A stretch of DNA of 64,000 nt from the IMG/VR virus record IMGVR_UViG_3300035670_013167, positions 1 through 64,000 of that record; one strand, 5' to 3'. Positions 16,069-57,412 of the stretch are shown one piece after another. The notes beneath the pieces are model-generated. The model had not been told where the DNA came from, searched no databases, and saw only the letters and a program-made list of their open reading frames with translations. Both the position numbers and the translations under genes were made by a program. This DNA comes from a virus. How positions within the stretch are numbered: position 1 is the stretch's first letter; every line of letters starts with the position of its first letter.

Positions 16069-18006
16069 TTATTCGCCTATTTTCTCAAGTATTCTCGATA
16101 TTACAGGATTTCTTATTATGTCTGTTTTGTCTAATTGAAAAGTTCCGACATCTTTAATTCCTTTTAATTTATCAAGCCAATAATACAAACCAGATTTTCC
16201 ATTTGGCAAATCTGATTGCTTGTCATCACCCACAAGAACCGCCTTACTGTTAAATCCTACTCTGGTTATGAATAGCTTAATTTGCTCTTTTGTGCAGTTT
16301 TGACATTCATCAAGAATCATGTAAGAATCATGGTAATTCATGCCTCTCATATAAGCCAAAGGAGCAATGACTATTTCATTTTCACCTCGTCTATTAATTC
16401 CATTATTTATAAATGTTTCTAATTCTTGCTTGCTAAGATAGTGAGATAATTCATAATAAATTGGTTGCAAATAAGGATCTAATTTTTCAGAAAAAGTATT
16501 GTGTGTGACTATGAAATCGTCGGTTATATATAAGTGTTCTGGGTTTTCTACCATTATACATTGAACTTCATCAAATCTAGCTTTTTCTATTGATATTACT
16601 TCTAGTTTTGAAACATTTTTACCCTTAAATCTCTCTGCTTTTCTTTTAATATAAAAAGGATTGATATCTTTCGTCATGTAAATTGAGACCTCGTATGAAA
16701 TTCTTTTTGCTTTAATAAAATTATTTTTAGTCTCTTTTCTTCTATCTCTTATTCTTAATTTTGCTTTTCCTCCCAAAGATCTAACTATTTCAATAACATC
16801 TTCAGCAAGACTTATAGAAGTTGTATAAAAATTAACTTGATCAGCAGATCTTTTTCTACAAGACCCATCTGTGTCTAGTAGCCCTCGAAGGATATCTATT
16901 CTATCTTGAATGCTTGAGTATTTATAATCAAAAGGAATAAACTTATCCCAGGCTTTTTTTCCATACAAACCAGAATCTCTAAAAAATTTCAACACAGGAT
17001 TTTTCCATGATTCTCCATTTTTTTCATATTTAAACCCATTGACAGTAGCTCCATAAAAAACTCTTGTGCTTAATGTTTTATAACCGCAATCAACAAATTC
17101 TAAAGCTTTTTTATTAGTAGGAAAATAATAAGAATTTTTGGTTTTAATTTCAGTAATTTTTACGGGTTTTGCACTTTCAATATATCCATCTATACTTGAA
17201 ATTGTATAAATACAAGCTTTACTATATTGTTTTTTAGCTTTTTTACAGAATAGTCCAATCGCTTTTATTTCATCATTTACTCTGTCAACTATTTCTTGAT
17301 CCGCGCTTGCGAATCTAACATGGGTTCCTTCTACGCAACCATCTCCAAGCATCACTCCTAAAGTATAAGGAGGAACAGGCAAATGTTTTTTTTCAAAATG
17401 AACTGCTTCATTTCTCGGAATAAAATGTCTTATGCCATTTTTGATATCAAACATAATATCTCTTGTTAATCTAACTTTACCTTTTTGTTTTTTATTTTTT
17501 TCCTCTTTTGTTTGCGTGTACCAAAGATGATCCTCACAACAAGATGTAGAAGTGCCATCAGAAGTAAATAAATTATATACGTCTTTTTTGCCCTTAGGAT
17601 ATATTTCCAAAATTTTTGTTGGAAGGCCGTCTCTACCTATAATAAAATCTCCCACTTTAACTTCTCTCATGGTAGTCCAGCCATTTTGTGTTAACAATCT
17701 AGCATCTAGTGGTTGAGGACCTGGGAGATAGCCCATGCTTGGACCAGATTCTACGACAGGCCTTGTTATAATTAATTTTTTATAATATCCATTTAGTAGT
17801 TTTTCTATTCCATAAGCAACGGCCAACTTTGTTTTTCCACTGCCCGCTGGCCCTGTTGCTAAAGTGACGGTATTTTCCGCTAAAGTCACTATTAGGTCCT
17901 CTTGATTTTTTGTTTTAGGTTTTAGCAAAGATCTTGTTTTGCATTGTTGTACATTAGCTTGTTTGTTTTGCTGACTTTCTTTTTTATTTCTTTTAGGTCT
18001 AGGCAT
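16069..18006 (-). CDS. phoH: PhoH-family ATPase containing an intein
   Basis: GPAGSGKT, ITRPVVE, GYLPG|...|TFSEKLDPY, PLAYMRG, ILDECQN, GDDKQSDL. Confidence 0.95.
   Translation of the reverse strand: MPRPKRNKKESQQNKQANVQQCKTRSLLKPKTKNQEDLIVTLAENTVTLATGPAGSGKTKLAVAYGIEKLLNGYYKKLIITRPVVESGPSMGYLPGPQPLDARLLTQNGWTTMREVKVGDFIIGRDGLPTKILEIYPKGKKDVYNLFTSDGTSTSCCEDHLWYTQTKEEKNKKQKGKVRLTRDIMFDIKNGIRHFIPRNEAVHFEKKHLPVPPYTLGVMLGDGCVEGTHVRFASADQEIVDRVNDEIKAIGLFCKKAKKQYSKACIYTISSIDGYIESAKPVKITEIKTKNSYYFPTNKKALEFVDCGYKTLSTRVFYGATVNGFKYEKNGESWKNPVLKFFRDSGLYGKKAWDKFIPFDYKYSSIQDRIDILRGLLDTDGSCRKRSADQVNFYTTSISLAEDVIEIVRSLGGKAKLRIRDRRKETKNNFIKAKRISYEVSIYMTKDINPFYIKRKAERFKGKNVSKLEVISIEKARFDEVQCIMVENPEHLYITDDFIVTHNTFSEKLDPYLQPIYYELSHYLSKQELETFINNGINRRGENEIVIAPLAYMRGMNYHDSYMILDECQNCTKEQIKLFITRVGFNSKAVLVGDDKQSDLPNGKSGLYYWLDKLKGIKDVGTFQLDKTDIIRNPVISRILEKIGE
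16498..17718 (-). mobile_element. Class-3-type intein with LAGLIDADG homing endonuclease (407 aa)
   Basis: Begins PQPLDA (no Cys/Ser1); EDHLW, VQCIMV, IVTHN|T; LGVMLGDG and LRGLLDTDG. Confidence 0.88.
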
Positions 18007-38590: not shown

Positions 38591-39121
38591 TTATTCTTCC
38601 TGAATTTTTTGATTTAATTCTTTATTTTCTTCATCAGAAAGCAAATGAGACTTTATCCTTTCTTTTATTTTGATATTTATTTTTTCATTTTCTTCAGGAG
38701 AATATTCTTTTGTTTTTAATTCATCTAAGTTTAGAACAGAAATAGAACACCAGTGAGGATCATCTTTAGGAACATGTCCTGGCTTGGTGTAGAAAAACAT
38801 TTCCAATGTGTACTTATAAGATTTCTTAGCAACCTCATCGGCAGTCATGCCAGCCAAAAGATCTTCCGCCATTAGTCTTGGAACTTTATGAGCGTCTATT
38901 TCTGAAGCAAACAGTAACTTTCTCATTATTTGAACTGTTGCTTCCATCTTGTTTTCCGTATCTGTCAGAAGCGATATTATTTGTCTTTTTTCGCCTCCAT
39001 CAACAAATTCAGCAATCGCAGAATATTTAGCTATAATTTCGCCCTTTTCGGGCTTTGACCTTCTGATATCTTTAAAATATTCACTAAAATTAGATTCATT
39101 TATTTCTACTTCTTCAATCAT
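38591..39121 (-). CDS. Hypothetical protein
   Basis: 176-aa ORF coupled to dnaE-C. Confidence 0.75.
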   Translation of the reverse strand: MIEEVEINESNFSEYFKDIRRSKPEKGEIIAKYSAIAEFVDGGEKRQIISLLTDTENKMEATVQIMRKLLFASEIDAHKVPRLMAEDLLAGMTADEVAKKSYKYTLEMFFYTKPGHVPKDDPHWCSISVLNLDELKTKEYSPEENEKINIKIKERIKSHLLSDEENKELNQKIQEE

Positions 39122-41687
39122 TTTCGCCTCTTTTTGCAGGTGCTTCCATTACTTGTAGTCTGTGGTCTTTTGATTTATCTTGCGGAAGCTTGTATCTTTC
39201 TTGTTTTCTAGGAGACTCAAAGGTATAAGACTTAAACCCTTTTCCGGGTTTTGTGACTCTCATTTGAATTAAATTACCTCTATTTTCTTCACAATTCCAA
39301 TAATTCAATTCTTCTTTGAACCTATTATAATCTTCTTCCCAAAAAGTTACAACTTCAACATTCCAATCCTCATCTTCAACAAGAACATAATAATATTTGT
39401 TGCCATTTTTTGAAATTTTTTCTTCCGGCTTTTTAGTAATCATACACTCAACACCAGCATTGTATATCATTTCGTCTTCTTTGAATCTTGTAAAAGACAA
39501 GTCTCCTTTATAATCAGGACTTTTTTCTAGAGGGTGCTGCCAACTAAAGCCGTAATATTTTTTTTCTATGTCAAATTGATTTGGTATTTCATCTGCTGGG
39601 TGTGTGTTTTTGCATTCCCAATTTTCAAGAGAAATAAAATTTTGCTCTAGCAATTCGGCTTTTTGCTCATAGGAGGTCACAGATTTCCAATACTTTCTTA
39701 ATATTTGATAAAAATCTTCTTTAGTAAATTCTTCTAGCAAATAAGATTGTTCAAAATTATCAAAATTTTCATAAAGATTCATTAAGTTTTCATGAATCAA
39801 TATATCATGATTTTTTAATAGGCCTTTCATTTCCTCTATTAGTAAAGATCTTCTTTTTTCTTGAGCTTTAATTTTAGAAACATTGCTTTTATCCCATTTC
39901 TTAAATTCTTCATAAAACTCAAGAAGAATATGAATTGGCCTTTCTTTAAAAACTTCTAAGTAAATCAAAGGCTCTACAATTCTCTTGTCTGTTCCGAACC
40001 TTTTTAAGAAATCTTCAATTCCAGAAAAAGGTTGTTTACTAACTATTTCTTCTGCGACTTCTTTGCCTATTCCTTTTATGTTTGAAAAACCAATATAAAT
40101 TTCATTATCAACTATTTCAAAATTAGCTTTAGATTTATTTAAGTCGCATCTATTTATTTTTATATTTAATCTTTCCGCTTCTCGTTTATATGACTTGAGC
40201 TTGTCCTCATCAGACTCTAAACTTAAAGTCGAAACAAAAAACTCAAGAGGATAATGAGCCTTAAGATAAAGTAGTCTCGAAGAAAGGTGAGTATAAGCAC
40301 AAGCATGACTTTTATTAAAACCATAGCCAGAGAAAGCTTCAATCTGATTGAATAAAAAGTTCATGTTTCTATTATCATCGGATTCTATAGGCCAGCCAGT
40401 TTTCCTACTGCCGTTCTCTAAAAACATCTGTTTGTATTTTGCAAATTCTGATATTTTCTTTTTACTAATTGCTTTTCTAATTTTTTCACAATGTATTAAG
40501 GGAATATCTCCGACCACATTCAACACTTGCATACATTGTTCTTGATAACAGAGAATTCCATGGGTTTTTTTCAAAACTTCTCTAACACATTCAGGAACCT
40601 GATCCTCCCATTTTTCTCTGCCCTTTTTTCTTTCGATATATCTTTCGTGCATCTGCATCTTTAATGCAGATGGTCTAAATAAAGCAGTATACGCAACCAA
40701 ATCATCAAAAGAATCGACGCCTCCTGACTTGATCAAATTTCTCATTCCTTCACTATCAAATTGAAAAACGCCTCTAGTTTTTGCTTCATTGGCCAAAAAT
40801 AAAGATTTTGGATCATTCAAATAAGAAGTGTCAGACCAATCAGAACAACCTTCTATAGCAGAAATGGACTTTATTTTATGCCTATCTTTAATTAATTTGC
40901 AACAATTAGCGATTCTCAACAAGTCCTTAATTGCAAGAACGTCAAATTTTATGAGACCTACAGGTTGCAAATCTTGATCATGTAAACCTTCTGTCCAGCC
41001 CGATACAGGATTGCCATCAGTATCAATCATTACTGGAACAAAGTCATCTATTTTTACACTAGAAATTACAGTACCGCCCGCGTGTTTGCCTCTGCTCCTG
41101 TTCCTGTCAATCAATCTTCTTGCAGCGTCGGTAACTTCTGGGTATTTTTTAGAATACTCACTTAATTCAGGAGATAACTCTAACGCCTTTTCCCAAGTAA
41201 GAGGATTGCCTTCTTCATCTCGGTCTTGAAGATTTTTTGTAATAGATTGAATTTCATTTCTATCGACCCCATGAACTCTCGCCATATCTAACAAAGCAGA
41301 CTTCATGCCGAAAGTGCCATAATTTCCTATATTAACAACATTGTCTCTTCCAAAAGCTCTTGGACAATAATCATTTCTCAAGTAATCTTGAATAATGGGC
41401 AAATAATCCACATCAATATCTGGAAACTCTCCTTGGACATATTTTGGTTCTTTGCTAATGTCAAAGTCATCGCATAAATCTAAAAGATAAGCTATAAATA
41501 AATTATTTTCATTATTAGAAAATTTAGCTTTCTTTTCATGTAAATTTATAAAATACTCATGATCTGCTTGGTTGTCCGTTTCTTGCAATTCCTTTTTCAA
41601 TCTGTTTTTGTAAATTTCAGAATTGCAATTCTTAGACTGCATACTCTTGATGCAAATCTTTATTAATTTTTCTCTTAAATCTATCAT
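39114..41687 (-). CDS. dnaE: DNA polymerase III alpha, C-terminal part (catalytic palm, fingers, HhH, OB)
   Basis: FPDIDVD, GKHAGG, GLIKFDVL, GVFQF, ALFRP, YQEQ, YGFNKSHA, GFSNIKGIG. Confidence 0.93.
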   Translation of the reverse strand: MIDLREKLIKICIKSMQSKNCNSEIYKNRLKKELQETDNQADHEYFINLHEKKAKFSNNENNLFIAYLLDLCDDFDISKEPKYVQGEFPDIDVDYLPIIQDYLRNDYCPRAFGRDNVVNIGNYGTFGMKSALLDMARVHGVDRNEIQSITKNLQDRDEEGNPLTWEKALELSPELSEYSKKYPEVTDAARRLIDRNRSRGKHAGGTVISSVKIDDFVPVMIDTDGNPVSGWTEGLHDQDLQPVGLIKFDVLAIKDLLRIANCCKLIKDRHKIKSISAIEGCSDWSDTSYLNDPKSLFLANEAKTRGVFQFDSEGMRNLIKSGGVDSFDDLVAYTALFRPSALKMQMHERYIERKKGREKWEDQVPECVREVLKKTHGILCYQEQCMQVLNVVGDIPLIHCEKIRKAISKKKISEFAKYKQMFLENGSRKTGWPIESDDNRNMNFLFNQIEAFSGYGFNKSHACAYTHLSSRLLYLKAHYPLEFFVSTLSLESDEDKLKSYKREAERLNIKINRCDLNKSKANFEIVDNEIYIGFSNIKGIGKEVAEEIVSKQPFSGIEDFLKRFGTDKRIVEPLIYLEVFKERPIHILLEFYEEFKKWDKSNVSKIKAQEKRRSLLIEEMKGLLKNHDILIHENLMNLYENFDNFEQSYLLEEFTKEDFYQILRKYWKSVTSYEQKAELLEQNFISLENWECKNTHPADEIPNQFDIEKKYYGFSWQHPLEKSPDYKGDLSFTRFKEDEMIYNAGVECMITKKPEEKISKNGNKYYYVLVEDEDWNVEVVTFWEEDYNRFKEELNYWNCEENRGNLIQMRVTKPGKGFKSYTFESPRKQERYKLPQDKSKDHRLQVMEAPAKRGEND

Positions 41688-44056: not shown

Positions 44057-45223
44057 CTAAAGCGAGTGGGCTTCAAGTTTCATAGCCTTGTCTAACGACA
44101 ACGACTCCACTTGTTTTTGTTTATTGAGCGACTTGGTTCCCAAGCCACTCATATTCAAACCTTGTTTTAGTATGTTGAGACTAGCGTTATAGTCTCGGTC
44201 AATGTTCTTTCCGCAAACGCATTTCCATTCACGGTCTTTCAGCGTCAACTCTTGATTGATGTGTCCACAATCATAGCAAGTTTTACTGCTCGGAAAGAAT
44301 CTGTCTATTTTCACAATTGTTCGCCCGTACCATTCTGCCTTGTAGGATAGTTGACGAACAAACTCTCCCCAACCGCAATTCATCACTGATTTTGCCAACT
44401 TATGATTACGCATAATGCCTTTAACATTAAGGTCTTCTACGCATATGACTTGGTTTTCGTCAATCAACTTTTTGGAAAGTTTATGCAAGAAGTCCGTTCT
44501 ATTGTTGGTGATTTTTTCATATATCTTGGCTAGTTTTATTCTTTGTTTATTTCTAGTTGATCCTCCTTTATTCTTTTTGCTTAACTGTTTTTGGTTGTAT
44601 TTCAAATTCTTTTCTAGTTTGTGGTAGTGTTTGGGGTTGTCAAAAACTTCGCCGTTGGAACAAACAACAAAATTTTTGATGCCCAAATCAATGCCTATTT
44701 TGTTCTTGTTTTTCTTGAGTTTATTTTGCCCAACCTCACAAGTCAACGAAACGAAGTATTTGTTGGTGGAAGTCTTGGATATGGTAATGAACCTTATCTC
44801 TCCAAATTCACGATGGATGTTTAGTTTGATTCCTTCCTTGAATTTGGGGAAATATATCTTGTCTTTTTTGATTGAAATGTGTTGCGGAACTCTAAATGAC
44901 TGTTTCTTGTGCTTTGACTTGAAAATTGGAAACTTGGTTTCTTTCCTGAAGAACTTGTTGTATGCTGTATCTAAATCTCGTAATGTATGTTGCAATGTTT
45001 GGCTGTTCACTTCCTTGAGCCAGTTGTATTCAGTCTTCTTTTTAACTTTGGTTAGTTCATTGGCACAATCGTAATAGTTCAATGTCTTTTTGTTGTCCAA
45101 ATATTCTTCTTTTCGTCTGTTCAAGAAGTAGTTCCACACAAACCTTCTGCAACCAAAGTGCTGGCTCAGTTTTTCTTTTTGGTCTTTTGTGGGTAGTAGT
45201 TGAAACTTGAACGACTTTAGCAT
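44057..45223 (-). CDS. tnpB: RNA-guided endonuclease TnpB
   Basis: N-terminal HTH (FGCRRFVWN), RuvC GIDLG / VEDL / DRDYNA, Zn finger CYDC..CVC. Confidence 0.95.
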   Translation of the reverse strand: MLKSFKFQLLPTKDQKEKLSQHFGCRRFVWNYFLNRRKEEYLDNKKTLNYYDCANELTKVKKKTEYNWLKEVNSQTLQHTLRDLDTAYNKFFRKETKFPIFKSKHKKQSFRVPQHISIKKDKIYFPKFKEGIKLNIHREFGEIRFITISKTSTNKYFVSLTCEVGQNKLKKNKNKIGIDLGIKNFVVCSNGEVFDNPKHYHKLEKNLKYNQKQLSKKNKGGSTRNKQRIKLAKIYEKITNNRTDFLHKLSKKLIDENQVICVEDLNVKGIMRNHKLAKSVMNCGWGEFVRQLSYKAEWYGRTIVKIDRFFPSSKTCYDCGHINQELTLKDREWKCVCGKNIDRDYNASLNILKQGLNMSGLGTKSLNKQKQVESLSLDKAMKLEAHSL

Positions 45224-47752: not shown

Positions 47753-50292
47753 TTAATCCTCTGTTTTTGGTACATCAAAAGGGCAATCATCTTCATCCAT
47801 TATAACAGGATCTATAGAAAATCTCAACTTCATTTGTTTGCCTCCTCTAGATGGACTTAGAAATCTAGAAAAAAGCAAATCATGTTCAATTGGATTAACA
47901 TCTGTGATACCTAGACAATAACAGACCAAAGAACCAACTACGCTACCGCGACCTGGACCTACAGCCTCTGACCCGTCTCCATAACCTAGTAATTTTGGAC
48001 AGATTCTTCTAGCCTCGTCAGTCATCATTTTTTGAATCAAAAAGTAGCTAGCGAATCCTTTTTGACATATCAATTGATATTCTTCTTTTATTCTGTCTAA
48101 ATATTTTTTATTTTTAGGCAATCTTCTGAGCTTAAAGCCAATTTGTATGGCTTCTAATAATTTTTCTTCAGATTCAGGAATATAGGGTAATTTTATAGAC
48201 CTGTCTAACTCTACACCCTTCGATCTTTGGGCGATTTTAGTTGTATTTATTTTGGCTTGCTCAAAAATTTCATAAGGAATATCTTCACTATAGTCACTTA
48301 GCCATTTTGCATTTAATTCTTCTTCGCTTTTCATCCAAAGATTTTGATCTTGAAGCTCAAACAAATCTGCCGTTTCGTTTTCTGCTTTTTTTTCTTCTAT
48401 TTCCTTTAAGGTCTTCTTTGTTTGAACCATTAACATAAGACGCTGCATTTTGCTATCTTCTTGCAAGCAGTAATGACAATCATTACTTAATATTATTGGC
48501 AAATTGTATTTTTCATGAGCTTTAATTATAAACTTGTTATAAGGCTTTTGCTTGTTAAAATCCAAAAGCATTATTTCAAGATAAAAATTATCTTTGCCAA
48601 AAAATTCGATATATCTCTCGACCATTCTAAAGCCTTCTTCTTCGCCGCCACGGTCAAAGGCCTGTCCTATTTCAGAATTATAACAACAAGATGTAAAAAT
48701 TAATCCTTCTTTATGATCTTGCAATAATTCGTAATTTATTCTTGGTCTGTAATAGAAGCCTCTAGTCCATGCGGCAGAAGACAAGTTAACTAAATTACTG
48801 TAGCCTTTTTGGCTATAAGCTATGGCTAATAAATGAAAAGATTTTTTAAAGTCTTTTCTTTCTTCTGGACTCATATGTTCGGTAATTTCCGAAGCTTTTT
48901 GTCCGATATTTAAAGTGGGTTGAAGAGGATTGATGTAAAGTTCACAGTTATGAACTATAAAATCACTAACATAACTATTATCTTCTTCAACCTCAAAATT
49001 AAAAACTTCTATATTTTTTTCTTCTACTGATATACTAGAGATAGGCTTGATTATGTAATTATTTTTAATAAAGTTTCTTCTATATTTTACATTTTCGGTT
49101 ATAGGGACAGTATAACAAGTTCTTCCATCTAAAGTTTTATTAGAATACACATTTGACCAAAAACCTAAATTAGAAATTATTATTCGAACCTGATACGCGA
49201 GGTGGGAGGAGGATGTGCGTAAAGTTTTTTGTTTATTTTTTTTATTTATTTTTTTGCCATCTCCATCTAACAAGCCATCTAAAAATGCTTTTTGTACTTT
49301 TCGTGGCGAATCAAAAATTTGATGAGGGATTTTTTTATTTTTTGATCCCATTCCAATCAAATCAGACACAACATAACACAAAGGAAGGCAACAAAAACAA
49401 CAATCCATTTTACTATTTTCTTTATCTTCATAGCACGAAAGATTGATTCCAAATTTATTCAAAAAATTTGCTGCTCTTTTTGCCAAATCAAGTTCAAAAT
49501 AATTAAGAGAAAACCTCATGCCGCCTGTAAGCCTGCCATCTTTTTTAGAAAAACTTCCTTCTGCTGCGAACAGTCCTAAAAAATATGCAAATTCCTCATC
49601 TAATTCTATGAACAAAGGAATTTTTTCCCACTTTTTTTGTCCTTTCGAAAAAAATAAATTATCTATTTTGATTTCATCAGGTTGATATTCTTCTAATTTT
49701 ATTTTAATATTTTCATGTACATCTTGCATTTGTGGAAATGCAACATAACTAAAATGATTATCTAGACCCAAACCTGATCTGTGTCTTTTAACAATAATAT
49801 TCTCTGTTTTTGTCCAAGAATAATTGCCATGTTTGTCAAAAATCATAACTGGGTGGTCTCCAGTTAGTTGAGTTGTCTTCTTCGATCTTCCTACGCCAGA
49901 TAATTTGATACTGTAAATTTTACCATTATAATTTTTTTTCATTATTCTCAAAACCGATTTAAATCTACCTTTGTGCGTGAGAACTTTATCTCCGACATCT
50001 ATTTCCGATATGTCCTTAAAACCATCAATTGTATGAATTGGAGTCCCAGCAGGCATACAAGCAAATATAGGATTTATTCCATACTTTTCACATGCTTGAA
50101 TTTGCCTTGGAATTCCACCTAGAGAACCATGGTCACTTATACAGAGAAATTGTTGATTGATCTCTTTGGCTCTTTTAGCATATTCGTGCGCTGTGCCGTA
50201 TCCGTCAAGAACAGAAAAATCAGAGTTAACTAGTGCAGGTGAAGATGTTCAAAACCAACAATCTTCACCTGCTTGTCTCCTTTCTGCGTCAT
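47753..50292 (-). CDS. dnaE: DNA polymerase III alpha, N-terminal part (PHP + start of palm); intein-containing; interrupted by an 8-nt stop-containing insert at 50225-50232
   Basis: FEHLHLH|TAGTTAAC|SDFSVLDGYG, ISDHG, PIFA|intein|CELY, NDCHY, GPGRGS, LLFSRFL; start ATG 50292 or GTG 50268 (AAAGGAG SD). Confidence 0.88.
48947..50059 (-). mobile_element. Intein with LAGLIDADG endonuclease (371 aa) in the DnaE PHP domain
   Basis: CMPAGT..., LTGDHP, FLGLFAAEG, FLDGLLDGDG, VFNFEVEEDNSY..FIVHN|C. Confidence 0.93.
50225..50272 (-). other. Candidate recoding signal: 12-bp hairpin + CAC-TAG + 8-nt gap
   Basis: GCAGGTGAAGAT(N14)ATCTTCACCTGC immediately followed by ACTAGTTAACTCT. Confidence 0.6.
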
Positions 50293-50543: not shown

Positions 50544-51269
50544 CTAATTAATATCTTTTTTCTTACGGCCTGTTCTTGTTTTGGCTAATGTTTCAAAACC
50601 TTTTTCGCCCAAAATACCATCGGCAAATCCGTAATAAACAGCTTCATCAGCAGAAAGATACCAATCCGAATTATGTCTTATTTTGGAATCAATAAAATTC
50701 ATAGTCTTTTTAATTCCATAACTTCTGTCTGTGAAGTATTTTCCCATTATAGCTCTTTGAGCAAATATTTGCAACATCCTTTTGTTGTATTTTTCATTCT
50801 GATCAATAGCAGATTTTACAGCAATCGCATTATCGCTTACAGAAACAGATCCATGATGAATCATAACTTCGCAATCTGGCAGTAAGACTCTTTTATCCGC
50901 TGCTTGAAGTATAATACCACTCATGGACGAAGCTTGAGCGTACGATAATATAGTCACAGGAGAAGATATTAATCTAATTATATTAAACATCGCCATTCCA
51001 TCAGACCAACATCCACCTATTGTGTGCATATGAATTAATATATTTTTATGATTTTGAGCCTCTAGGATATGCATGTTTTTTATAAACTTGGTGGCCATTC
51101 GATAATCTACGCCAGGCTCTTCCTCATCAACACCATCCATATGACCATGCAAATAAATCTCTCTAGAATGATGATTTACATTATTATTATGAATGTCACT
51201 AATCAACTGCTCTATGGCAGTAACTTTTTTGGGCGTATAAATTTGACTCATAAGTGTATCTGTGGGCAT
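50544..51269 (-). CDS. clpP: ClpP-like protease
   Basis: REIYLHG, IHMHTIGG, ASSMSGIILQAA (Ser), VMIHHG (His), DWYLSADEAV.YG.AD. Confidence 0.85.
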   Translation of the reverse strand: MPTDTLMSQIYTPKKVTAIEQLISDIHNNNVNHHSREIYLHGHMDGVDEEEPGVDYRMATKFIKNMHILEAQNHKNILIHMHTIGGCWSDGMAMFNIIRLISSPVTILSYAQASSMSGIILQAADKRVLLPDCEVMIHHGSVSVSDNAIAVKSAIDQNEKYNKRMLQIFAQRAIMGKYFTDRSYGIKKTMNFIDSKIRHNSDWYLSADEAVYYGFADGILGEKGFETLAKTRTGRKKKDIN

Positions 51270-51348
51270 TTGAGTTACACCTATATTTAGACATAATAAA
51301 ATCCATAATGCATTTTTTTAATAAATTATTAATAATTTATTAAAAAAA

Positions 51349-52968
51349 TTAATAAGAGTCATAATTTGGAGATCCTATTCCCAAATATTGGTCTCTTTCT
51401 ACAACGTCAATTACATCCTCTCCTAAACACCTATAAATAAGCTCTGTGCCGTCTGCGGTCTTGGTCGATAGGCAGACATCATTTTTCCATAAATACCTCA
51501 GAGATTGAATTACAGGCCTTATATAGGGGTCGTAAAGCGGTCTGCCGTCCGATTTGTGCTCTAAAAATAAAATTCCTTTTCCTTTGTGATTACAATCAGT
51601 TAGATAAATTTCGGGCAATCCGCCATTTGTGTATCTTTGAATTAATTTTTTTTTAATTTTTTTATGATCTCTACTTTCTATTTTATATTCGCCATTCGGA
51701 TATTTTTTCCATTCAAAAAATTGATACTTTTCACAAAATTCAGGAGTAAAAAACTCCATAATAAAAGTCAAATCATTATAGAACTTTCTAACTTCAAAAA
51801 CCTTATCATGACCCAAATTTAATTTTTTATCCCAATTTTCTTTCTCTCTAATATCTTCGCAGTCTTCCCACTCAGTGCCAAATTGTCCTTTATTCCATCT
51901 TTCTTCAATATCCAAAAATAAACAAAAACCTAATTTATAAGGATTCATAGAATATTTTCCACCAAGAACCCCCATTTTATGATGAGAGTATTCTATAATT
52001 CCAGAACTTTCATGACTCTGGCCTAAAGCACTGAATCCTTGTTTTGCCATTATATTATAGTCACAGAAAGAAGCCCAACCCTCATTTATAGTTTTGGTCA
52101 ACCTCTGGGGGGCGAAGTACATACTCTCATCATAAAGCATAGCGACTATGTCTGCTTCCCAAGGCTTGAGGGGAGCATAATCCCTAATAAACCTCATTAT
52201 GTCCTTCGTAGAATTATTAAATATATCTAAATATTCCGCAGCTTCTATTTTTTGAATTTTTTCTTGTTGCTTGTTTATCCAATCTTGTGGATTTAAATAG
52301 TCATCCATATAGTCATGGTCTTCTTTTGACTTTAATCTACTCGGATGTCTATAAATTCTTTCATCCTTTATTATCGGATTTTTAATTTTTTTTCTTTCCC
52401 AAGATTTTGAAAAATCTATTAAAGTTTCAATTCTCAAGACATGATCTATAAATTCTGTTACTCTTTCTTTGCCCCAACGACTCATGTACTCTCTAATTCT
52501 GGTGCCGTGGTTAGCCAATTGATTCATCATGTTTTGGCTTGTTTGAGAAAAATAAATATTATTCTTAAAAAAATCAGCGTGGCCTAAAGCGTGAGCAACC
52601 ACAGTAACATTATCGACCAAAGTATTAGAATCTAAACAATAAAGGTATACTGGGTTTGTGTTAACTACCATTTCGTATATCTTATGCATTCCATAAACAT
52701 ATCCTCTTTGTAGCTCTTCATATTCCATTCCCCATCTCCAATGAGGAAAGCGAACAGGAAACCCTCCATATGCTGCTATCTCACTAATTTCATCATAAGT
52801 CAGCATTTCAACAACAGTTGGATAAAAATCACAACCAAAATCACTTACTTTTTTATAAATTTCAGGCAATAATTTTTTAAGTTCAGGAGGAAGAGAAACT
52901 CCTGGAATTGTGTTGTCTCCCATTAAGACAGGAGACCCATGCATAAATTTTTCAGATTTTTTATTCAA
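51349..52968 (-). CDS. spoVR: SpoVR/YcgB family protein
   Basis: AYGGFPVRFPHWRWG, KIYEMVVN, AHALGHADFFKNN, TKTINEGWASF, NPYKLG. Confidence 0.95.
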   Translation of the reverse strand: MNKKSEKFMHGSPVLMGDNTIPGVSLPPELKKLLPEIYKKVSDFGCDFYPTVVEMLTYDEISEIAAYGGFPVRFPHWRWGMEYEELQRGYVYGMHKIYEMVVNTNPVYLYCLDSNTLVDNVTVVAHALGHADFFKNNIYFSQTSQNMMNQLANHGTRIREYMSRWGKERVTEFIDHVLRIETLIDFSKSWERKKIKNPIIKDERIYRHPSRLKSKEDHDYMDDYLNPQDWINKQQEKIQKIEAAEYLDIFNNSTKDIMRFIRDYAPLKPWEADIVAMLYDESMYFAPQRLTKTINEGWASFCDYNIMAKQGFSALGQSHESSGIIEYSHHKMGVLGGKYSMNPYKLGFCLFLDIEERWNKGQFGTEWEDCEDIREKENWDKKLNLGHDKVFEVRKFYNDLTFIMEFFTPEFCEKYQFFEWKKYPNGEYKIESRDHKKIKKKLIQRYTNGGLPEIYLTDCNHKGKGILFLEHKSDGRPLYDPYIRPVIQSLRYLWKNDVCLSTKTADGTELIYRCLGEDVIDVVERDQYLGIGSPNYDSY

Positions 52969-54146
52969 GATTTTACCTTTCCTAAAAGATCAACTATTGA
53001 TTTCTTAATTTGAGAATCTCTATCGTCCTCTGACAATTGCATGTTTGGCAAACTATGTGCTGGATGTGCTATTTGAGTTGTAACCAAATTTGAAAAATTA
53101 CTTTGATCTATAGCTTGCTTTAAGCTTCCATCGTAGTTCCAAGCTAATACTTGTGTTATTCCCACCATGTTGACAATTTTAGAATTAAAATCATCTTGTA
53201 AAATTTTTATAAATTGCTGATTGTCCCCGTCCCAATTTTCACCATCTGTAAAATAAAATAAATAAATATTCCACTTTAAGGGATTGTATCTGTTTTCAAA
53301 CATTTTTTGAATTAATTTTAGTGCTGACGAACAAGTTGTGCCTCCGCCATATCTGTACTTGTAGAATCTGCTTTCATCGACTTCTTTGGCAACGGTATCA
53401 TGCCAAACATACACTCGCTCTACTTTTTCATAAAATCTTCTAATCCATACATCAATCCACCAACTCATATCACTAACAATATCGCATTTATATTGATCCA
53501 TTGAGGCAGATCCATCTCTAGCAAAAAATATAACTGCATTGCTTGAAGGTATTTTTATCTCATTGAATTGACGGTATCTCTTATCGCTATTAATAGGAGT
53601 TATAAGTTTTACTGGATGAGCAAATCCTGGTATGTCGTGGAGATTATTTATGGAACCATCAGAACATTGTCTTTTTAAGGCTTGCCTAAGAGTTCTTGCA
53701 TTGTGCCTTAAGGACTCAGGGCCAGTCAGCGATATATTATTATATTTCTTAATAATTTCTTCATAAGTGTCACTAGGCTTTGGCTTCATGTCGGGAAGTT
53801 GCAATTCTTCTTGAAGAAATTTCAAAACCTCTTCAAGATCAACAGCAATCTCTATGCCTTCGCCTTCTTCTTGTCCGGCTTTATTGCCTTTTCCGTCTCC
53901 TTGATCTTTATCTTTTCCTATGACCTTACCATTTTCTCCTTCTCCTCTTCCTATTCCTCCGCTTCCATTATCACCAAAAACAATATGCGGAATATCTATT
54001 TTTGGAATAGTTAATATAACTTTACCATCTTTACCGCGATTCCTAAAAATACTTCCATTTTTAATGTATTTTTTTAATTCTTTTCTTTTTCTGCCGGCAT
54101 ATACGTCATGGAACTCTTTATGGTCTTCATGTATTCGGCGGGGCAT
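52965..54146 (-). CDS. yeaH: YeaH/YhbH (DUF444) vWA-like protein
   Basis: Gly-rich linker, FLQEELQLP, AVIFFARDGSASM, GGGTTCSSA, WNIY.F.FTDGEN. Confidence 0.93.
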   Translation of the reverse strand: MPRRIHEDHKEFHDVYAGRKRKELKKYIKNGSIFRNRGKDGKVILTIPKIDIPHIVFGDNGSGGIGRGEGENGKVIGKDKDQGDGKGNKAGQEEGEGIEIAVDLEEVLKFLQEELQLPDMKPKPSDTYEEIIKKYNNISLTGPESLRHNARTLRQALKRQCSDGSINNLHDIPGFAHPVKLITPINSDKRYRQFNEIKIPSSNAVIFFARDGSASMDQYKCDIVSDMSWWIDVWIRRFYEKVERVYVWHDTVAKEVDESRFYKYRYGGGTTCSSALKLIQKMFENRYNPLKWNIYLFYFTDGENWDGDNQQFIKILQDDFNSKIVNMVGITQVLAWNYDGSLKQAIDQSNFSNLVTTQIAHPAHSLPNMQLSEDDRDSQIKKSIVDLLGKVKS

Positions 54147-54160
54147 TTTTCATCCTTTGA

Positions 54161-57100
54161 TTAGTCGTTATCAGCAACATCGCCGCGAGCGAAAATTGAA
54201 CCCACGTAGTCCAAAACATCAGTAGCAGATTGTTCGTTATATCCGTATTGAGATATAAGTCTTTGCTTTACTGCGTCTATCTTTTCTTGAACATCCTTAT
54301 CAACAACAGCAGCTCCCTTAATATTTAGAGCCGAAAGCTTGATGTGATCCTTTGTGTCTTCAAAAAGCTTAGCTTCTAAAGCTTTCTTGAGTTGAGGATT
54401 GCTATCCCATCTAAATTGCTTTCCACTATGGGCCAAGTGCCCAATAAATCCTGCTAAAGATCTTCTAAAATCATCTGCTCCGACTTCGGGAATATCTATC
54501 TTCTCTTCTATAGATCTCATTAATCTTTCGTCTGGCTCTTGGTCTTGTTCTGTGAATGGATTTTTAATCTTAGTGCCATCAATATAAGCCATCACATTAT
54601 CAATATAATTGCCACATAGCCTTTCGATAGCAGTTTCATCTCCTACAAGAGCCTTTTGAACTTCTGTTTTCAATATTTGATCCAGTTCTTTTCTAGCCAA
54701 GTCTACACACGTAATATATTTAGACTTTTCTTCTTCACTAGTAAATAAAGATTGATGATCTATTCCATTTTTCAATTCATTTAGAACCATAAAGAAATTT
54801 ATATAATCATAATGAGAACTAAGACAATTAGAAATTTTGTCTTGAGTATATCTACAACTTACTCCCACAAACATGCCTTCATCGGGATATTTATCCTTGA
54901 GTTCTTTTATAGAGTCTTCAGTCCAACCAGGAAGAGATCTTCCATCATATAATTTAGCTTTCTCAACTAGAGTTATTTTGCCATCTTTATCATCTTGAAG
55001 TCTGGTTAAGACTGTCCAGAGAGCAGCAATTTCCAAGGTATGGGGAGCAATGTGCTGCTTTACTCTTCCTCTACCGTAGTAGTACTCTAGTATCTTAAGT
55101 TCTTCGCTCCATCTTAATAAGTACGGAACATCAATCTTCACAGTACGATCTCTCAAAGCTTCCATAGTCTGATCGCTTTTTAACTTTTCATACTCTGGAT
55201 TATTGGTGTGAGAAATTAAAACAGTGTCTATGCTAATTTGTGGAAATTTTTTAGGCTTGATTTGACGTTCCTGAGATGCTCCAAGCAAATCATATAAAAA
55301 TTCTTTAGCCAACTTTAGAACTTCGATAAATTCAACAACGCCTCTATTTCCAACACAGTTGTGAACAACTATATCATTTGCCAAAAACGAATGATCTTCT
55401 TCTACCTCAAAATCAAAAACCTGTAGGTCAGAAACATTGTTGAAAGAAATAGATTTAATTTTTCTTGCATATCCAAAAACAGTTCTGTTGACATCTGTCT
55501 CGTATAATTCAATTCCATTTTGCCTAACTTCTTCGGCAAAGTCTTCAAAAATGTCTAAGGACTTTTTGCCTGACGCTCCTACAACATATGCTTTTTTATG
55601 GTTTTCAAAAGCAGGCCTGGCATAGGACGATGATCCCATGCCGCTGGACAGCATAAGAACAGAAATATCTCTGGCTAATTTTTCTGATATTGTTACGCCC
55701 GTTATTGACATTGCGGGCTTACCTTTAATTTTTTTAATTTTTCTGTGGCCGTCTCCATCAAGCCACCCAGATATCAATCCCATCTTAACTGACTCGTTTG
55801 AGGTCATAAATACAGGAGGTATTCTTTTTGTTCCGGCCAAACCCGCACAAAACTTAGAGAAAAATTTGGCTAAATTAACATTGTTGACCTCGACTATTCT
55901 TCCTGTTTTATTTTTATTAACTAACCTATGAGTGGCATTTACTCCGAAAATACTATTGACCAATAGTATTATTTCATTAGCTAAATTTTCTTCTTTAGCG
56001 CTCAGATTAAAAATAACCTTTTTACTAGTGCAATTTCCTTCTGCTAAATATAGGCCAAATAACCTGGCAAAGGAGTGTGTTACGTGCAAATATCTATTGA
56101 CTACATTTTTCTTTTCTCCAGTTGGGATTCTAACTTTTTCCACGCCATTTTCAAATGTAGAAACAAAATTATCCAAATAAATAGATAAATCAACAACTTG
56201 ATCAATACAATTTCTATTCCAGCCTATTAACACCCTGTCGTTTTCGTTCAAATCAGAAGCTTTTTTCCAAACTAAATTGCCGGGCTTCCATCTCCAATTT
56301 TGACTACTTTCCATAACCGCAACAGGATGATCTGCGGTCATTGTAATTGGAAAAGGAAAATGAGAAACATTCAAAGTAACCATTTCCCCAGTATACTTTC
56401 TATTCATCGTATCGATAACAGACCTTACATTGCCAAGATGAGTAACAACTTCATCTCCAATTTTTACATCTTCTATGTTTTTTTCAGACCCATCTCCCAT
56501 GCGAACCAAAGTTCCAGCAGGAAAACAAAACTCGCCGTCAAAGTTAAATGCTCTTGAATCAGAATCGGTGCCAAAGTGGGTCAACTTGCCCCAATTAACA
56601 TCTCCAGTTAATTCTGTGCTGTCTTGATTTTTTTCATCCTTTGGCTGGAAGGTGGCTATTCCCATTCTATCTGATTCCGAATGGTTTTTTCTTATTACTC
56701 TTATGTGATTCTCTATAACTTTTTCCCAATCGCCTTCGTACTTAACCAATAGTTCTTTCATGAACTTTTTAGATCTCGGATCAAGGTCTCCCTCAACATT
56801 TAATTTATACAAATTTATTTTTTCTTTTTCATCCGTTTGATCTGCCAATATTTCATTAAGTTCTTTTAGAACTTCTTTTCTAATTTCAGAAGGTATTAGC
56901 TTTAGTGGATCTTCGTGCATTGGAGATTCGTCTTCTGGCTGCGTGTATAGGCCATCGTCTTTGCCAGTTGGCAAATTAACCCATTTAAATGTGTACCAAG
57001 CTCCATCATCAGTTAGAGAATACTTTTCCAAGCCTCTCTTGATACACCTTAATATTGTTGATTTAGAAGATCCAACAGGACCGTGCAAAAGAAGCACTCG

Positions 57101-57412
57101 ACGTTCAGGACCATATCCTCCTGCTGCTCCTTTGAAGAATTGAACGAGTTGATGCAACGTTTCTTCTAGACCAAAGATGGGAACTTCAGGATCATCAAAA
57201 AAACTATAGTGAACGTATGTTTTTCTATACTTCTCTACTTTTTTCGTACCTTTTGACATGATCATGTCATAAAGATATTGATAAGCAGTTCTTGCTAATT
57301 TAGGATTTTTATAAACTAATGACAAATAATCAGAAAAACTCATTTCCTCGTTTAGTTTTTGAAAATTATCTTTATTAAATTTATTAGCAATTTTTGATAA
57401 GACGTTTTCCAT
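54161..57412 (-). CDS. prkA: PrkA/YeaG serine kinase-AAA protein containing an intein
   Basis: LLLHGPVGSSKS, DEKNQDSTELTG, FDGEF|intein|CVGNRG..EF.E.LK, HTN..EY, EALRDR, HIAPHTL. Confidence 0.95.
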   Translation of the reverse strand: MENVLSKIANKFNKDNFQKLNEEMSFSDYLSLVYKNPKLARTAYQYLYDMIMSKGTKKVEKYRKTYVHYSFFDDPEVPIFGLEETLHQLVQFFKGAAGGYGPERRVLLLHGPVGSSKSTILRCIKRGLEKYSLTDDGAWYTFKWVNLPTGKDDGLYTQPEDESPMHEDPLKLIPSEIRKEVLKELNEILADQTDEKEKINLYKLNVEGDLDPRSKKFMKELLVKYEGDWEKVIENHIRVIRKNHSESDRMGIATFQPKDEKNQDSTELTGDVNWGKLTHFGTDSDSRAFNFDGEFCFPAGTLVRMGDGSEKNIEDVKIGDEVVTHLGNVRSVIDTMNRKYTGEMVTLNVSHFPFPITMTADHPVAVMESSQNWRWKPGNLVWKKASDLNENDRVLIGWNRNCIDQVVDLSIYLDNFVSTFENGVEKVRIPTGEKKNVVNRYLHVTHSFARLFGLYLAEGNCTSKKVIFNLSAKEENLANEIILLVNSIFGVNATHRLVNKNKTGRIVEVNNVNLAKFFSKFCAGLAGTKRIPPVFMTSNESVKMGLISGWLDGDGHRKIKKIKGKPAMSITGVTISEKLARDISVLMLSSGMGSSSYARPAFENHKKAYVVGASGKKSLDIFEDFAEEVRQNGIELYETDVNRTVFGYARKIKSISFNNVSDLQVFDFEVEEDHSFLANDIVVHNCVGNRGVVEFIEVLKLAKEFLYDLLGASQERQIKPKKFPQISIDTVLISHTNNPEYEKLKSDQTMEALRDRTVKIDVPYLLRWSEELKILEYYYGRGRVKQHIAPHTLEIAALWTVLTRLQDDKDGKITLVEKAKLYDGRSLPGWTEDSIKELKDKYPDEGMFVGVSCRYTQDKISNCLSSHYDYINFFMVLNELKNGIDHQSLFTSEEEKSKYITCVDLARKELDQILKTEVQKALVGDETAIERLCGNYIDNVMAYIDGTKIKNPFTEQDQEPDERLMRSIEEKIDIPEVGADDFRRSLAGFIGHLAHSGKQFRWDSNPQLKKALEAKLFEDTKDHIKLSALNIKGAAVVDKDVQEKIDAVKQRLISQYGYNEQSATDVLDYVGSIFARGDVADND
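55358..56527 (-). mobile_element. Intein with LAGLIDADG endonuclease (390 aa) in PrkA
   Basis: CFPAGT..., MTADHP, FGLYLAEG, ISGWLDGDG, VFDFEVEEDHSF..IVVHN|C. Confidence 0.93.

Follow-up and report, generated by a model that had tools for sequence, protein, structure and literature searches.

The window analysed here is a stretch of 64,000 nucleotides (nt), positions 1 to 64,000 of the IMG/VR virus record IMGVR_UViG_3300035670_013167, which comes from an uncultured, very large phage. Its minus strand carries the phage DNA polymerase gene dnaE. The subject of this analysis is an 8-nt interruption of that gene, which opens with a stop codon and lies after the first metal-binding motif. The features of the locus are the following:

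50290-50292, minus strand: upstream in-frame ATG, candidate true start, eight codons before the GTG; would give MTQKGDKQVKIVGFEHLHLH
50277-50283, minus strand: Shine-Dalgarno (SD)-like AAAGGAG, 4 nt 5' of the hairpin foot; Lys-Gly if the upstream ATG is used
50261-50272, minus strand: hairpin 5' arm GCAGGTGAAGAT, including GTG 50268-50266, an alternative start
50247-50260, minus strand: hairpin loop, codons I-V-G-F-E, with a small 3-bp inner helix; synonymous variation among alleles
50235-50246, minus strand: hairpin 3' arm ATCTTCACCTGC, H-L-H-L-H codons, from 11 nt before the take-off codon to its first base
50233-50235, minus strand: take-off codon CAC, last His of HLHLH
50225-50232, minus strand: coding gap TAGTTAAC, 8 nt, with in-frame stop TAG 50232-50230 and proposed landing codon AAC 50227-50225
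47753-50224, minus strand: downstream frame, DnaE N-half, resuming at TCT 50224-50222; PHP domain, LAGLIDADG intein, and DNA_pol3_alpha at positions 18-98 (Pfam)
39114-41687, minus strand: DnaE C-half, partner of the putatively recoded N-half; PDIDVD palm motif, fingers and HhH; about 6 kb away

On the minus strand the region begins ATG (50292-50290) ACG CAG AAA GGA GAC AAG CAG GTG (50268-50266) AAG ATT GTT GGT TTT. It continues GAA CAT CTT CAC CTG CAC (50235-50233), TAG (50232-50230), TTAAC (50229-50225) and TCT (50224-50222), followed by GAT TTT TCT GTT CTT GAC GGA. The upstream frame encodes MTQKGDKQVKIVGFEHLHLH and terminates at the TAG. Deletion of exactly 8 nt (50232-50225) yields HLHLH-SDFSVLDG, the canonical first PHP motif, joined to the 824-codon DnaE N-half. 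Downstream of the gap the coding frame is -1. A TGA closes this frame at 50251-50249, and 824 open codons follow, to position 47753. Its first ATG, GTG or TTG is codon 64 after that stop, the ATG at 50056, which is residue 2 of the intein. An earlier note on this DNA had claimed the frame-restoring deletion, the closed downstream frame lacking a start before intein residue 2, and a perfect 12-bp stem (50272-50261 with 50246-50235) that buries the GTG, and all three were borne out. It had also pointed to an ACT direct repeat and the palindrome AGTTAACT around and within the gap. Both are present, but as signals they were rejected, being conserved in none of the relatives described below; the "AC" of the repeat is simply the match between take-off and landing codons.

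A scan of open reading frames (ORFs) of at least 120 codons across the 107-kb record found dnaE (831 codons) to be the sole substantial one with a long start-less 5' extension. Six other ORFs of 123-201 codons were flagged in the same record. As dnaE was the only real gene flagged, such gaps are not a genome-wide feature of this record.

Related phage contigs were collected by protein-guided scans of IMG/VR and the JGI metagenomes, and by scanning DNA for the pattern F-E-H-x-H-x-H followed by TAG and for two further patterns. About 17 of the 40 hits of the first of these patterns, together with L090 and L093, were discarded as chance matches outside dnaE (L-numbers label related contigs or alleles; the record holding the window is G000). 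About 60 dnaE 5' ends were gathered, 40 of them distinct: 22 with a gap at the window's position (the His site) and 18 without. Among the latter, three carry a gap at a second position (the Leu site) and 15 are uninterrupted. The alignment of relatives suggested in the earlier note, in search of a stop or gap between HxH and S, recovered 18 different His-site gaps. All lie at the window's exact codon boundary, and their lengths are 5, 6, 7 or 8 nt. The Leu-site gaps occur in three lineages, are 6 nt long and fall 18 nt downstream of the His site, after the Leu of SVL.

His site, 5 nt: TGAAT (L092)
His site, 6 nt: TAGCTT (L049)
His site, 7 nt: TAGTTAT (twice), TAGTTAC, TAGCTAC, TAGCCAC, TAGCTAT, TGACCAC
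His site, 8 nt: TAGTTAAC (window), TAGTTCTT, TAGTTTAC (twice), TAGTTGAC, TAGCCGTC, TAGCTAAC, TAGCTGAC, TAGGTCAA
Leu site, 6 nt, with flanking codons: CTT-TAACTT-GAC, CTT-TAACTA-GAT, CTC-TAACTT-GAT

The first triplet of every gap is a stop codon in the incoming frame (TAG, TGA or TAA). Removal of the gap restores H-[ST]-D-[FYM]-S-x-L-D-G with zero extra residues in all 18 His-site and three Leu-site variants. The last triplet is also constrained. At the His site it is NAY in 14 of the 18 gaps, matching positions 2 and 3 of a His codon; two gaps (L037 and L056) end in CAC itself, and eight in TAC or TAT, where position 1 could form a G·U pair. At the Leu site, where a Leu codon precedes the gap, it is CTN in 3/3. 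These two features, a stop codon first and a near-cognate triplet last, matter to a ribosome and not to a nuclease or ligase. One relative, L030, contains two gaps in a single PHP motif (L030:1429-1500), of 8 nt after His and 48 nt after Leu. The longer one opens with TGA, has stops in all three frames and forms its own GC-rich hairpin; an internal CTT lies in frame with its resume codon.

Several gap alleles recur letter for letter in independent assemblies (L003/L028, L032/33/35/60, and seven contigs of the L050 group). Other sister alleles share the same hairpin and have unlike gap lengths (L092, L049, L081 and L078). Because gaps of 5, 6, 7 and 8 nt span all three frames, even among sisters, one class of frameshift cannot cover them; from these sequences, a ribosomal hop would account for every length where a single frameshift class does not. 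An alternative genetic code with TAG as a sense codon was considered and rejected, as it cannot mend gaps of 5, 7 or 8 nt. Of the GenBank records, the closest in protein sequence is LR756511.1, from an uncultured phage of 595 kb (56% identity); the 5' end of its dnaE is unbroken. A blastn search of the region against GenBank phages gave no match.

Directly upstream of the gap lies a strong hairpin. In the window, GCAGGTGAAGAT (50272-50261) and ATCTTCACCTGC (50246-50235) form the perfect 12-bp stem, and the 81-nt fold has an energy of -26.1 kcal/mol (z = -4.3), with none of 200 shuffled sequences as stable. A hairpin of 9-14 bp ending at the take-off codon is found in every gap allele, whereas gapless relatives lack it. 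When the 3' arm is paired with upstream sequence, the predicted energy ranges from -16 to -24 kcal/mol in the 22 gap alleles and from -2 to -10 kcal/mol at the same position in the 18 alleles without a His-site gap, two disjoint ranges in a comparison uncorrected for kinship. An Rfam search returned no match.

Compensatory change in the stem, a check also proposed in the earlier note, was assessed in an ungapped alignment of 17 His-site cassettes (alignment A4). Nearly all cells of the 12-bp core are paired, as are 86% over the full 17-pair structure, compared with 32-47% when the partner is slid by 1-3 columns. Double-sided changes occur at four core pairs (35-70, 37-68, 38-67 and 41-64), and the covariation score of 0.204, against 0.095 for shuffled alignments, was reached by 0 of 500 shuffles. 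Three sequences contain G·U pairs, an indication that the structure forms in the sense-strand RNA. Where the 5' arm differs in the encoded amino acid (Lys/Glu, Val/Met), His and Leu codons of the 3' arm change synonymously to match. L042, whose motif reads HLHRH, has a different stem (GCCGGTGG/CCACCGGC) in the same place. In the Leu-site type the hairpin is shifted along with the gap: its arms are CACCGTGAAATC and GATTTCTCGGTG, and the 3' arm ends directly before the take-off CTT.

Other structures are seen around some gaps. L003 and L039 have small CACUA/UAGUG stem-loops, and the Leu-site type has one of 12 bp. In this last type (L088:10630-10680, L089 and L091), CGGTG can pair either with an upstream CACCG, as part of the 5' hairpin, or with a downstream CACCG. 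The downstream pairing creates the 12-bp stem-loop, which encloses CUU-UAA and the landing codon. The two alternatives are a possible structural switch.

Conservation on either side of the gap indicates that both segments are used. The upstream codons I-V-G-F-E-H-L-H-x-H are kept in 22/22 gap alleles, with synonymous variation in the loop. Wherever an allele extends far enough for assessment, its N-half is intact for 430-450 codons, and this holds down to about 53% identity. The window and L003 share 48 of 50 extein residues at a DNA identity of about 83%. Given this conservation of the peptide and the intact N-halves, both segments appear to be translated and under selection and not to be pseudogenes. 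No tRNA genes were found by aragorn in the 107-kb record, which leaves no suppressor or special tRNA of phage origin as an explanation.

The gap alleles also share an N-terminal extension. An in-frame ATG lies 17-25 codons before the stop in 18/18 His-site alleles, many of them with an SD sequence of its own; gapless relatives start directly at M(x0-3)KIVGFEH. The gapless L020 reads ATG ACA CAA AAA ATT GTT where the window reads ATG ACG CAG AAA, then GGA GAC AAG CAG GTG AAG, then ATT GTT. By this comparison the AAAGGAG-N8-GTG segment looks like an 18-nt in-frame insertion that brought in the SD-like element and the 5' arm. In 16 of 18 alleles the 5' arm is preceded, at a distance of 4-6 nt, by AAAGGAG or GGAGG. 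The earlier note had missed the in-frame ATG at 50292-50290 and taken AAAGGAG-N8-GTG for the ribosome-binding site and start. The letters are present as described; their role is in doubt in view of the upstream ATG in all 18 alleles, and AAAGGAG may instead act as an SD-like signal within the gene. Alleles of the Leu-site type have an in-frame TAG before AAAGGAG, which makes the GTG their start. For the window, the start is either ATG 50292 or GTG 50268.

The distribution of the gaps points to mobility. On a quick maximum-likelihood tree of 37 DnaE N-halves the gap state is scattered, and well-supported branches force at least six changes of state at the His site. The window and L051 have an identical 59-nt cassette, while the flanking coding DNA is 83% identical. 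In such sequence comparisons the cassette (N-terminal extension, 5' arm and gap) behaves like a swappable unit. The alleles L088 (Leu-site gap) and L019 (gapless) have nearly identical proteins, but in L088 a clean insertion of 993 nt separates dnaE from the gene upstream. It encodes a 333-residue HNH endonuclease (phrog_559, 681 and 1035). The first ~130 nt of dnaE, with hairpin and gap, are diverged in L088 as well. Homologues of this HNH gene (34-56% identity) adjoin dnaE in the His-site alleles L067 and L073. In all three the gene lies directly upstream of dnaE (L088:9594-10595, L067:4599-5420 and L073:4409-5578); in L067 only 3 nt separate the HNH stop codon from the dnaE ATG. The HNH proteins have repeated N-terminal CxC...CxxC zinc-finger-like modules and a C-terminal WHIDHIFP...NCLENL.

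A Pfam search of the ORFs upstream of dnaE detected no nuclease domain, while PHROGs matched HNH in three lineages. In a tblastn search, the HNH protein matched HNH genes of Bacillus, Vibrio and Lactococcus phages, not of T4. The other gap alleles have no HNH gene beside dnaE. A search of the window's own record with the HNH protein found none, the window genes upstream of dnaE being a 69-residue ORF and ClpP. The earlier note's alternative of a mobile-element footprint therefore holds in another sense, through the linkage of the cassette to an HNH gene in some lineages, but not in the window's own record. The cassette probably arrived together with a homing-endonuclease gene of the HNH type in some lineages. 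The overall pattern is that of an apparent homing-endonuclease cassette outliving its nuclease, in parallel to MobA and gene 60 of T4.

Taken together, the gap is likely to be crossed by programmed translational bypassing, in a non-homologous counterpart of T4 gene 60 with a short gap. The earlier note had proposed a hop in which tRNA-His lands on AAC, and the range of gap lengths (5-8 nt), the leading stop codons, the NAY landing triplets in 14 of 18 and the covarying, gap-only hairpin all support that proposal. Translation from ATG 50292 or GTG 50268 would reach CAC 50235-50233 with UAG in the A site. The peptidyl-tRNA-His would then release CAC, the mRNA would slide by 8 nt, and the tRNA would re-pair with AAC 50227-50225 at two of three positions, so that decoding restarts at UCU to give ...HLHLH-SDFSVLDG.... 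The hairpin would be the driver. With CAC in the P site, the 3' arm would be inside the ribosome and the 5' arm already outside, and the 3' arm, which begins 11 nt before the take-off codon, would have its first base approximately at the mRNA exit. Each base pair zipped would draw out one nucleotide, and 5-8 pairs would yield a movement of 5-8 nt. AAAGGAG at the 5' foot of the hairpin may help to place the ribosome. The gap may also shield its carrier's own dnaE from cleavage, by analogy with T4 mobA and gene 60.

Several observations weigh against a hop. The alleles are related, and gap counts are not counts of independent events. In the window the landing codon AAC agrees with the take-off CAC at only two of three positions, and four relatives have exceptional landing triplets (CTT, CTT, GTC and CAA). 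The nascent peptide is only 12-20 residues long, with no evident signal like that of gene 60. RNAalifold over the relatives found no conserved hairpin 3' of the gap; in the window the gap contains just the loopless palindrome AGTTAACT, and the take-off stem-loop on which gene 60 depends is missing 3' of the take-off codon. The hairpin also buries the GTG, so that control of initiation is conceivable instead, and in the window the -1 frame through the gap is open and would be read as LVN after a shift. The record covers about 21% of the genome, leaving room for a second polymerase gene.

Two alternatives address how, or whether, the gap is decoded. Ordinary recoding that retains the extra bases would need a -1 shift at the 8- and 5-nt gaps (adding Leu-Val-Asn in the window), a +1 shift at the 7-nt gaps and readthrough at the 6-nt gaps, in a PHP motif that would tolerate two or three extra residues. 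The alternative frames are open in the short gaps, the 8-nt gaps read Leu-(Val/Ala/Gly)-x throughout in the -1 frame, and a shift-promoting stop codon is a known stimulator of +1 frameshifting, as in prfB. However, sisters with near-identical hairpins would each require another mechanism, no slippery sequence is present, and tRNA-His is unable to re-pair in the -1 or +1 frame at CTG-CAC-TAG. The extra residues would also fall inside the invariant H-x-H-[ST]-D, which is never longer in gapless relatives. The matched Leu codons flanking the stop in 6-nt gaps, and L030's 48-nt gap, which has no open frame, are likewise at odds with such recoding, and we consider it quite unlikely. It is also unlikely that the gap is a scar or immunity mark of homing-endonuclease activity that is not efficiently decoded, with spontaneous hopping yielding traces of the N-half at most. 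The hairpin would then be an initiation control or a DNA-level recognition feature, and replication would proceed via another polymerase. The HNH genes beside the gap alleles L088, L067 and L073, the sequestered GTG start and the share of the genome in the record (about 21%) speak for this reading. Against it stand the conservation of the N-half and the upstream peptide across deep divergence, including the 48 of 50 residues alike between the window and L003, the G·U pairs that indicate sense-strand RNA structure, and a landing-codon bias that lacks an explanation at the DNA level.

The remaining two place the event outside translation. Removal of 5-8 nt (and of 48 nt) at the mRNA level, by cleavage and re-ligation at the hairpin in the manner of a micro-intron or an RNA-repair-type excision, would fit a strong hairpin adjoining a gap of freely variable length. 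Yet the sole conserved features of the gap, an initial in-frame stop and a final near-cognate triplet, are relevant to the ribosome alone, and the Rfam search gave no match. To our knowledge, no intron class of such small size exists. We regard excision as highly improbable. An assembly or sequencing error in a metagenomic contig is a negligible prospect, because related contigs carry 18 different gaps at the same site; gaps of the same site and architecture appear in many independent assemblies, several of them letter-identical across samples, and 8-nt insertions are rare among short-read errors.

The bypass in T4 gene 60 was reportedly described by Huang in 1988. Gene 60 bypassing and its MobA HNH element have since been discussed together (Manning & Atkins, bioRxiv 10.1101/2022.08.31.505936). 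As in that system, an essential phage replication gene has a non-coding gap, a stop codon (mostly UAG here) directly follows the take-off codon, a stem-loop lies upstream, take-off and landing codons are related, and an HNH homing endonuclease is linked to the gene in some dnaE lineages. The differences are considerable. Gene 60 encodes the large subunit of topoisomerase II and shares no sequence homology with dnaE, its gap is 50 nt compared with 5-8 nt here, and its hairpin lies 9 nt upstream of the take-off codon whereas the dnaE 3' arm overlaps that codon. The window lacks a stem-loop at the take-off codon and A site, no long basic nascent-peptide signal is evident, and the landing match is usually 2/3. 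Unlike MobA, the dnaE-linked HNH genes match phrog_559/681/1035 and HNH genes of phages other than T4. In gene, gap length, take-off stem-loop and endonuclease family, the dnaE cassette thus falls outside the gene 60 family, although it would work in a similar way. For gene 60, a 5' stem-loop is known and pairing of the exiting mRNA has been proposed to drive bypassing (Wills et al., bioRxiv 10.1101/2024.12.09.627546); the dnaE cassette would use the same driver in a more compact geometry.

Three other systems bear comparison. The terminase gene of the Streptomyces phage phiHau3 has short, 10-nt, UUA-led gaps with a proposed 5' stem-loop and flanking SD-like signals (Antonov et al. 2023, PMC10732093). 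In both cases short gaps (7-10 nt) interrupt an essential phage gene and their removal restores a conserved junction. The trigger in phiHau3, however, is a rare UUA sense codon tied to the host bldA tRNA, whereas it is a stop codon in dnaE; gene and host group also differ, and dnaE offers dozens of natural variants with covariation. In Escherichia coli reporters, peptidyl-tRNA can hop over a stop to a matching codon a few nt on (Weiss, Dunn, Atkins & Gesteland 1987, as cited in PMC10732093). Such stop-hopping was reportedly of low efficiency and took place in artificial constructs, unlike the natural, conserved dnaE arrangement with its dedicated hairpin. Magnusiomyces capitatus mitochondria have "byps", many mobile non-coding inserts in essential genes that are skipped in translation (summarised in bioRxiv 10.1101/2022.08.31.505936). 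As described there, byps are 27-55 nt, mitochondrial, GC-cluster-like and spread over many genes, in contrast to gaps of 5-8 nt in dnaE only within this record. The CUU UAG CUA example of the E. coli stop-hopping work is said to have the codon layout of the 6-nt relatives (CTT TAA CTT or CTA).

A fuller scenario is put forward tentatively, as a serious possibility: a clade of very large freshwater and marine phages may carry miniature dnaE bypass cassettes that arose independently of gene 60. In these, an exit-zipping hairpin would pull the message 5-8 nt over a stop; the cassettes would have spread with an HNH endonuclease, shielding the polymerase gene, and would have outlasted the nuclease, as in the window. 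Full-text literature searches found no description of bypassing in dnaE. Efficient programmed bypassing is experimentally known essentially from T4 gene 60 and its homologues, otherwise from the partly tested phiHau3 case and yeast mitochondrial elements. If hopping occurs in dnaE, it would constitute a second, non-homologous phage bypass system, and a second case of a selfish nuclease travelling with a recoding signal. Gap length and landing codon vary naturally, as does the stem through compensatory changes, and such alleles form a ready mutational series for release, slide, landing and exit-pairing drive. There is also a consequence for annotation: gene callers truncate or split such polymerase genes.

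The record containing the window (G000) is 106,763 bp long, with 31% G+C and a CheckV completeness of 21%. Together with the 595-kb nearest GenBank relative, these properties suggest a phage genome of several hundred kb. Its dnaE is split just before the catalytic PDIDVD motif into the two halves at 39114-41687 and 47753-50224 (both minus strand), and no intein motifs were seen at the split junction. The relatives have dnaE split likewise, the distance between their halves being 4.5-6.5 kb. In the window, the interval contains genes for an AAA ATPase, a 385-residue ORF, TnpB, an ATP-grasp protein and a methyltransferase; the TnpB gene (OrfB_IS605/Cas12f-like TNB) is at 44057-45223 (minus strand).

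The intein in the PHP domain of the N-half is a 371-residue LAGLIDADG intein (48947-50059, minus strand; FA/C...HN/CELY), which the five closest relatives (L003-L007) lack. Two more LAGLIDADG inteins are found on the minus strand, one in a PrkA-like kinase (54161-57412) and one in a PhoH-like ATPase (16069-18006). Directly upstream of dnaE lies a PrkA-DUF444 (YeaH-like)-SpoVR module followed by ClpP (50544-57412, minus strand), and in the relatives ClpP, together with SpoVR in L059, is likewise located upstream of dnaE.

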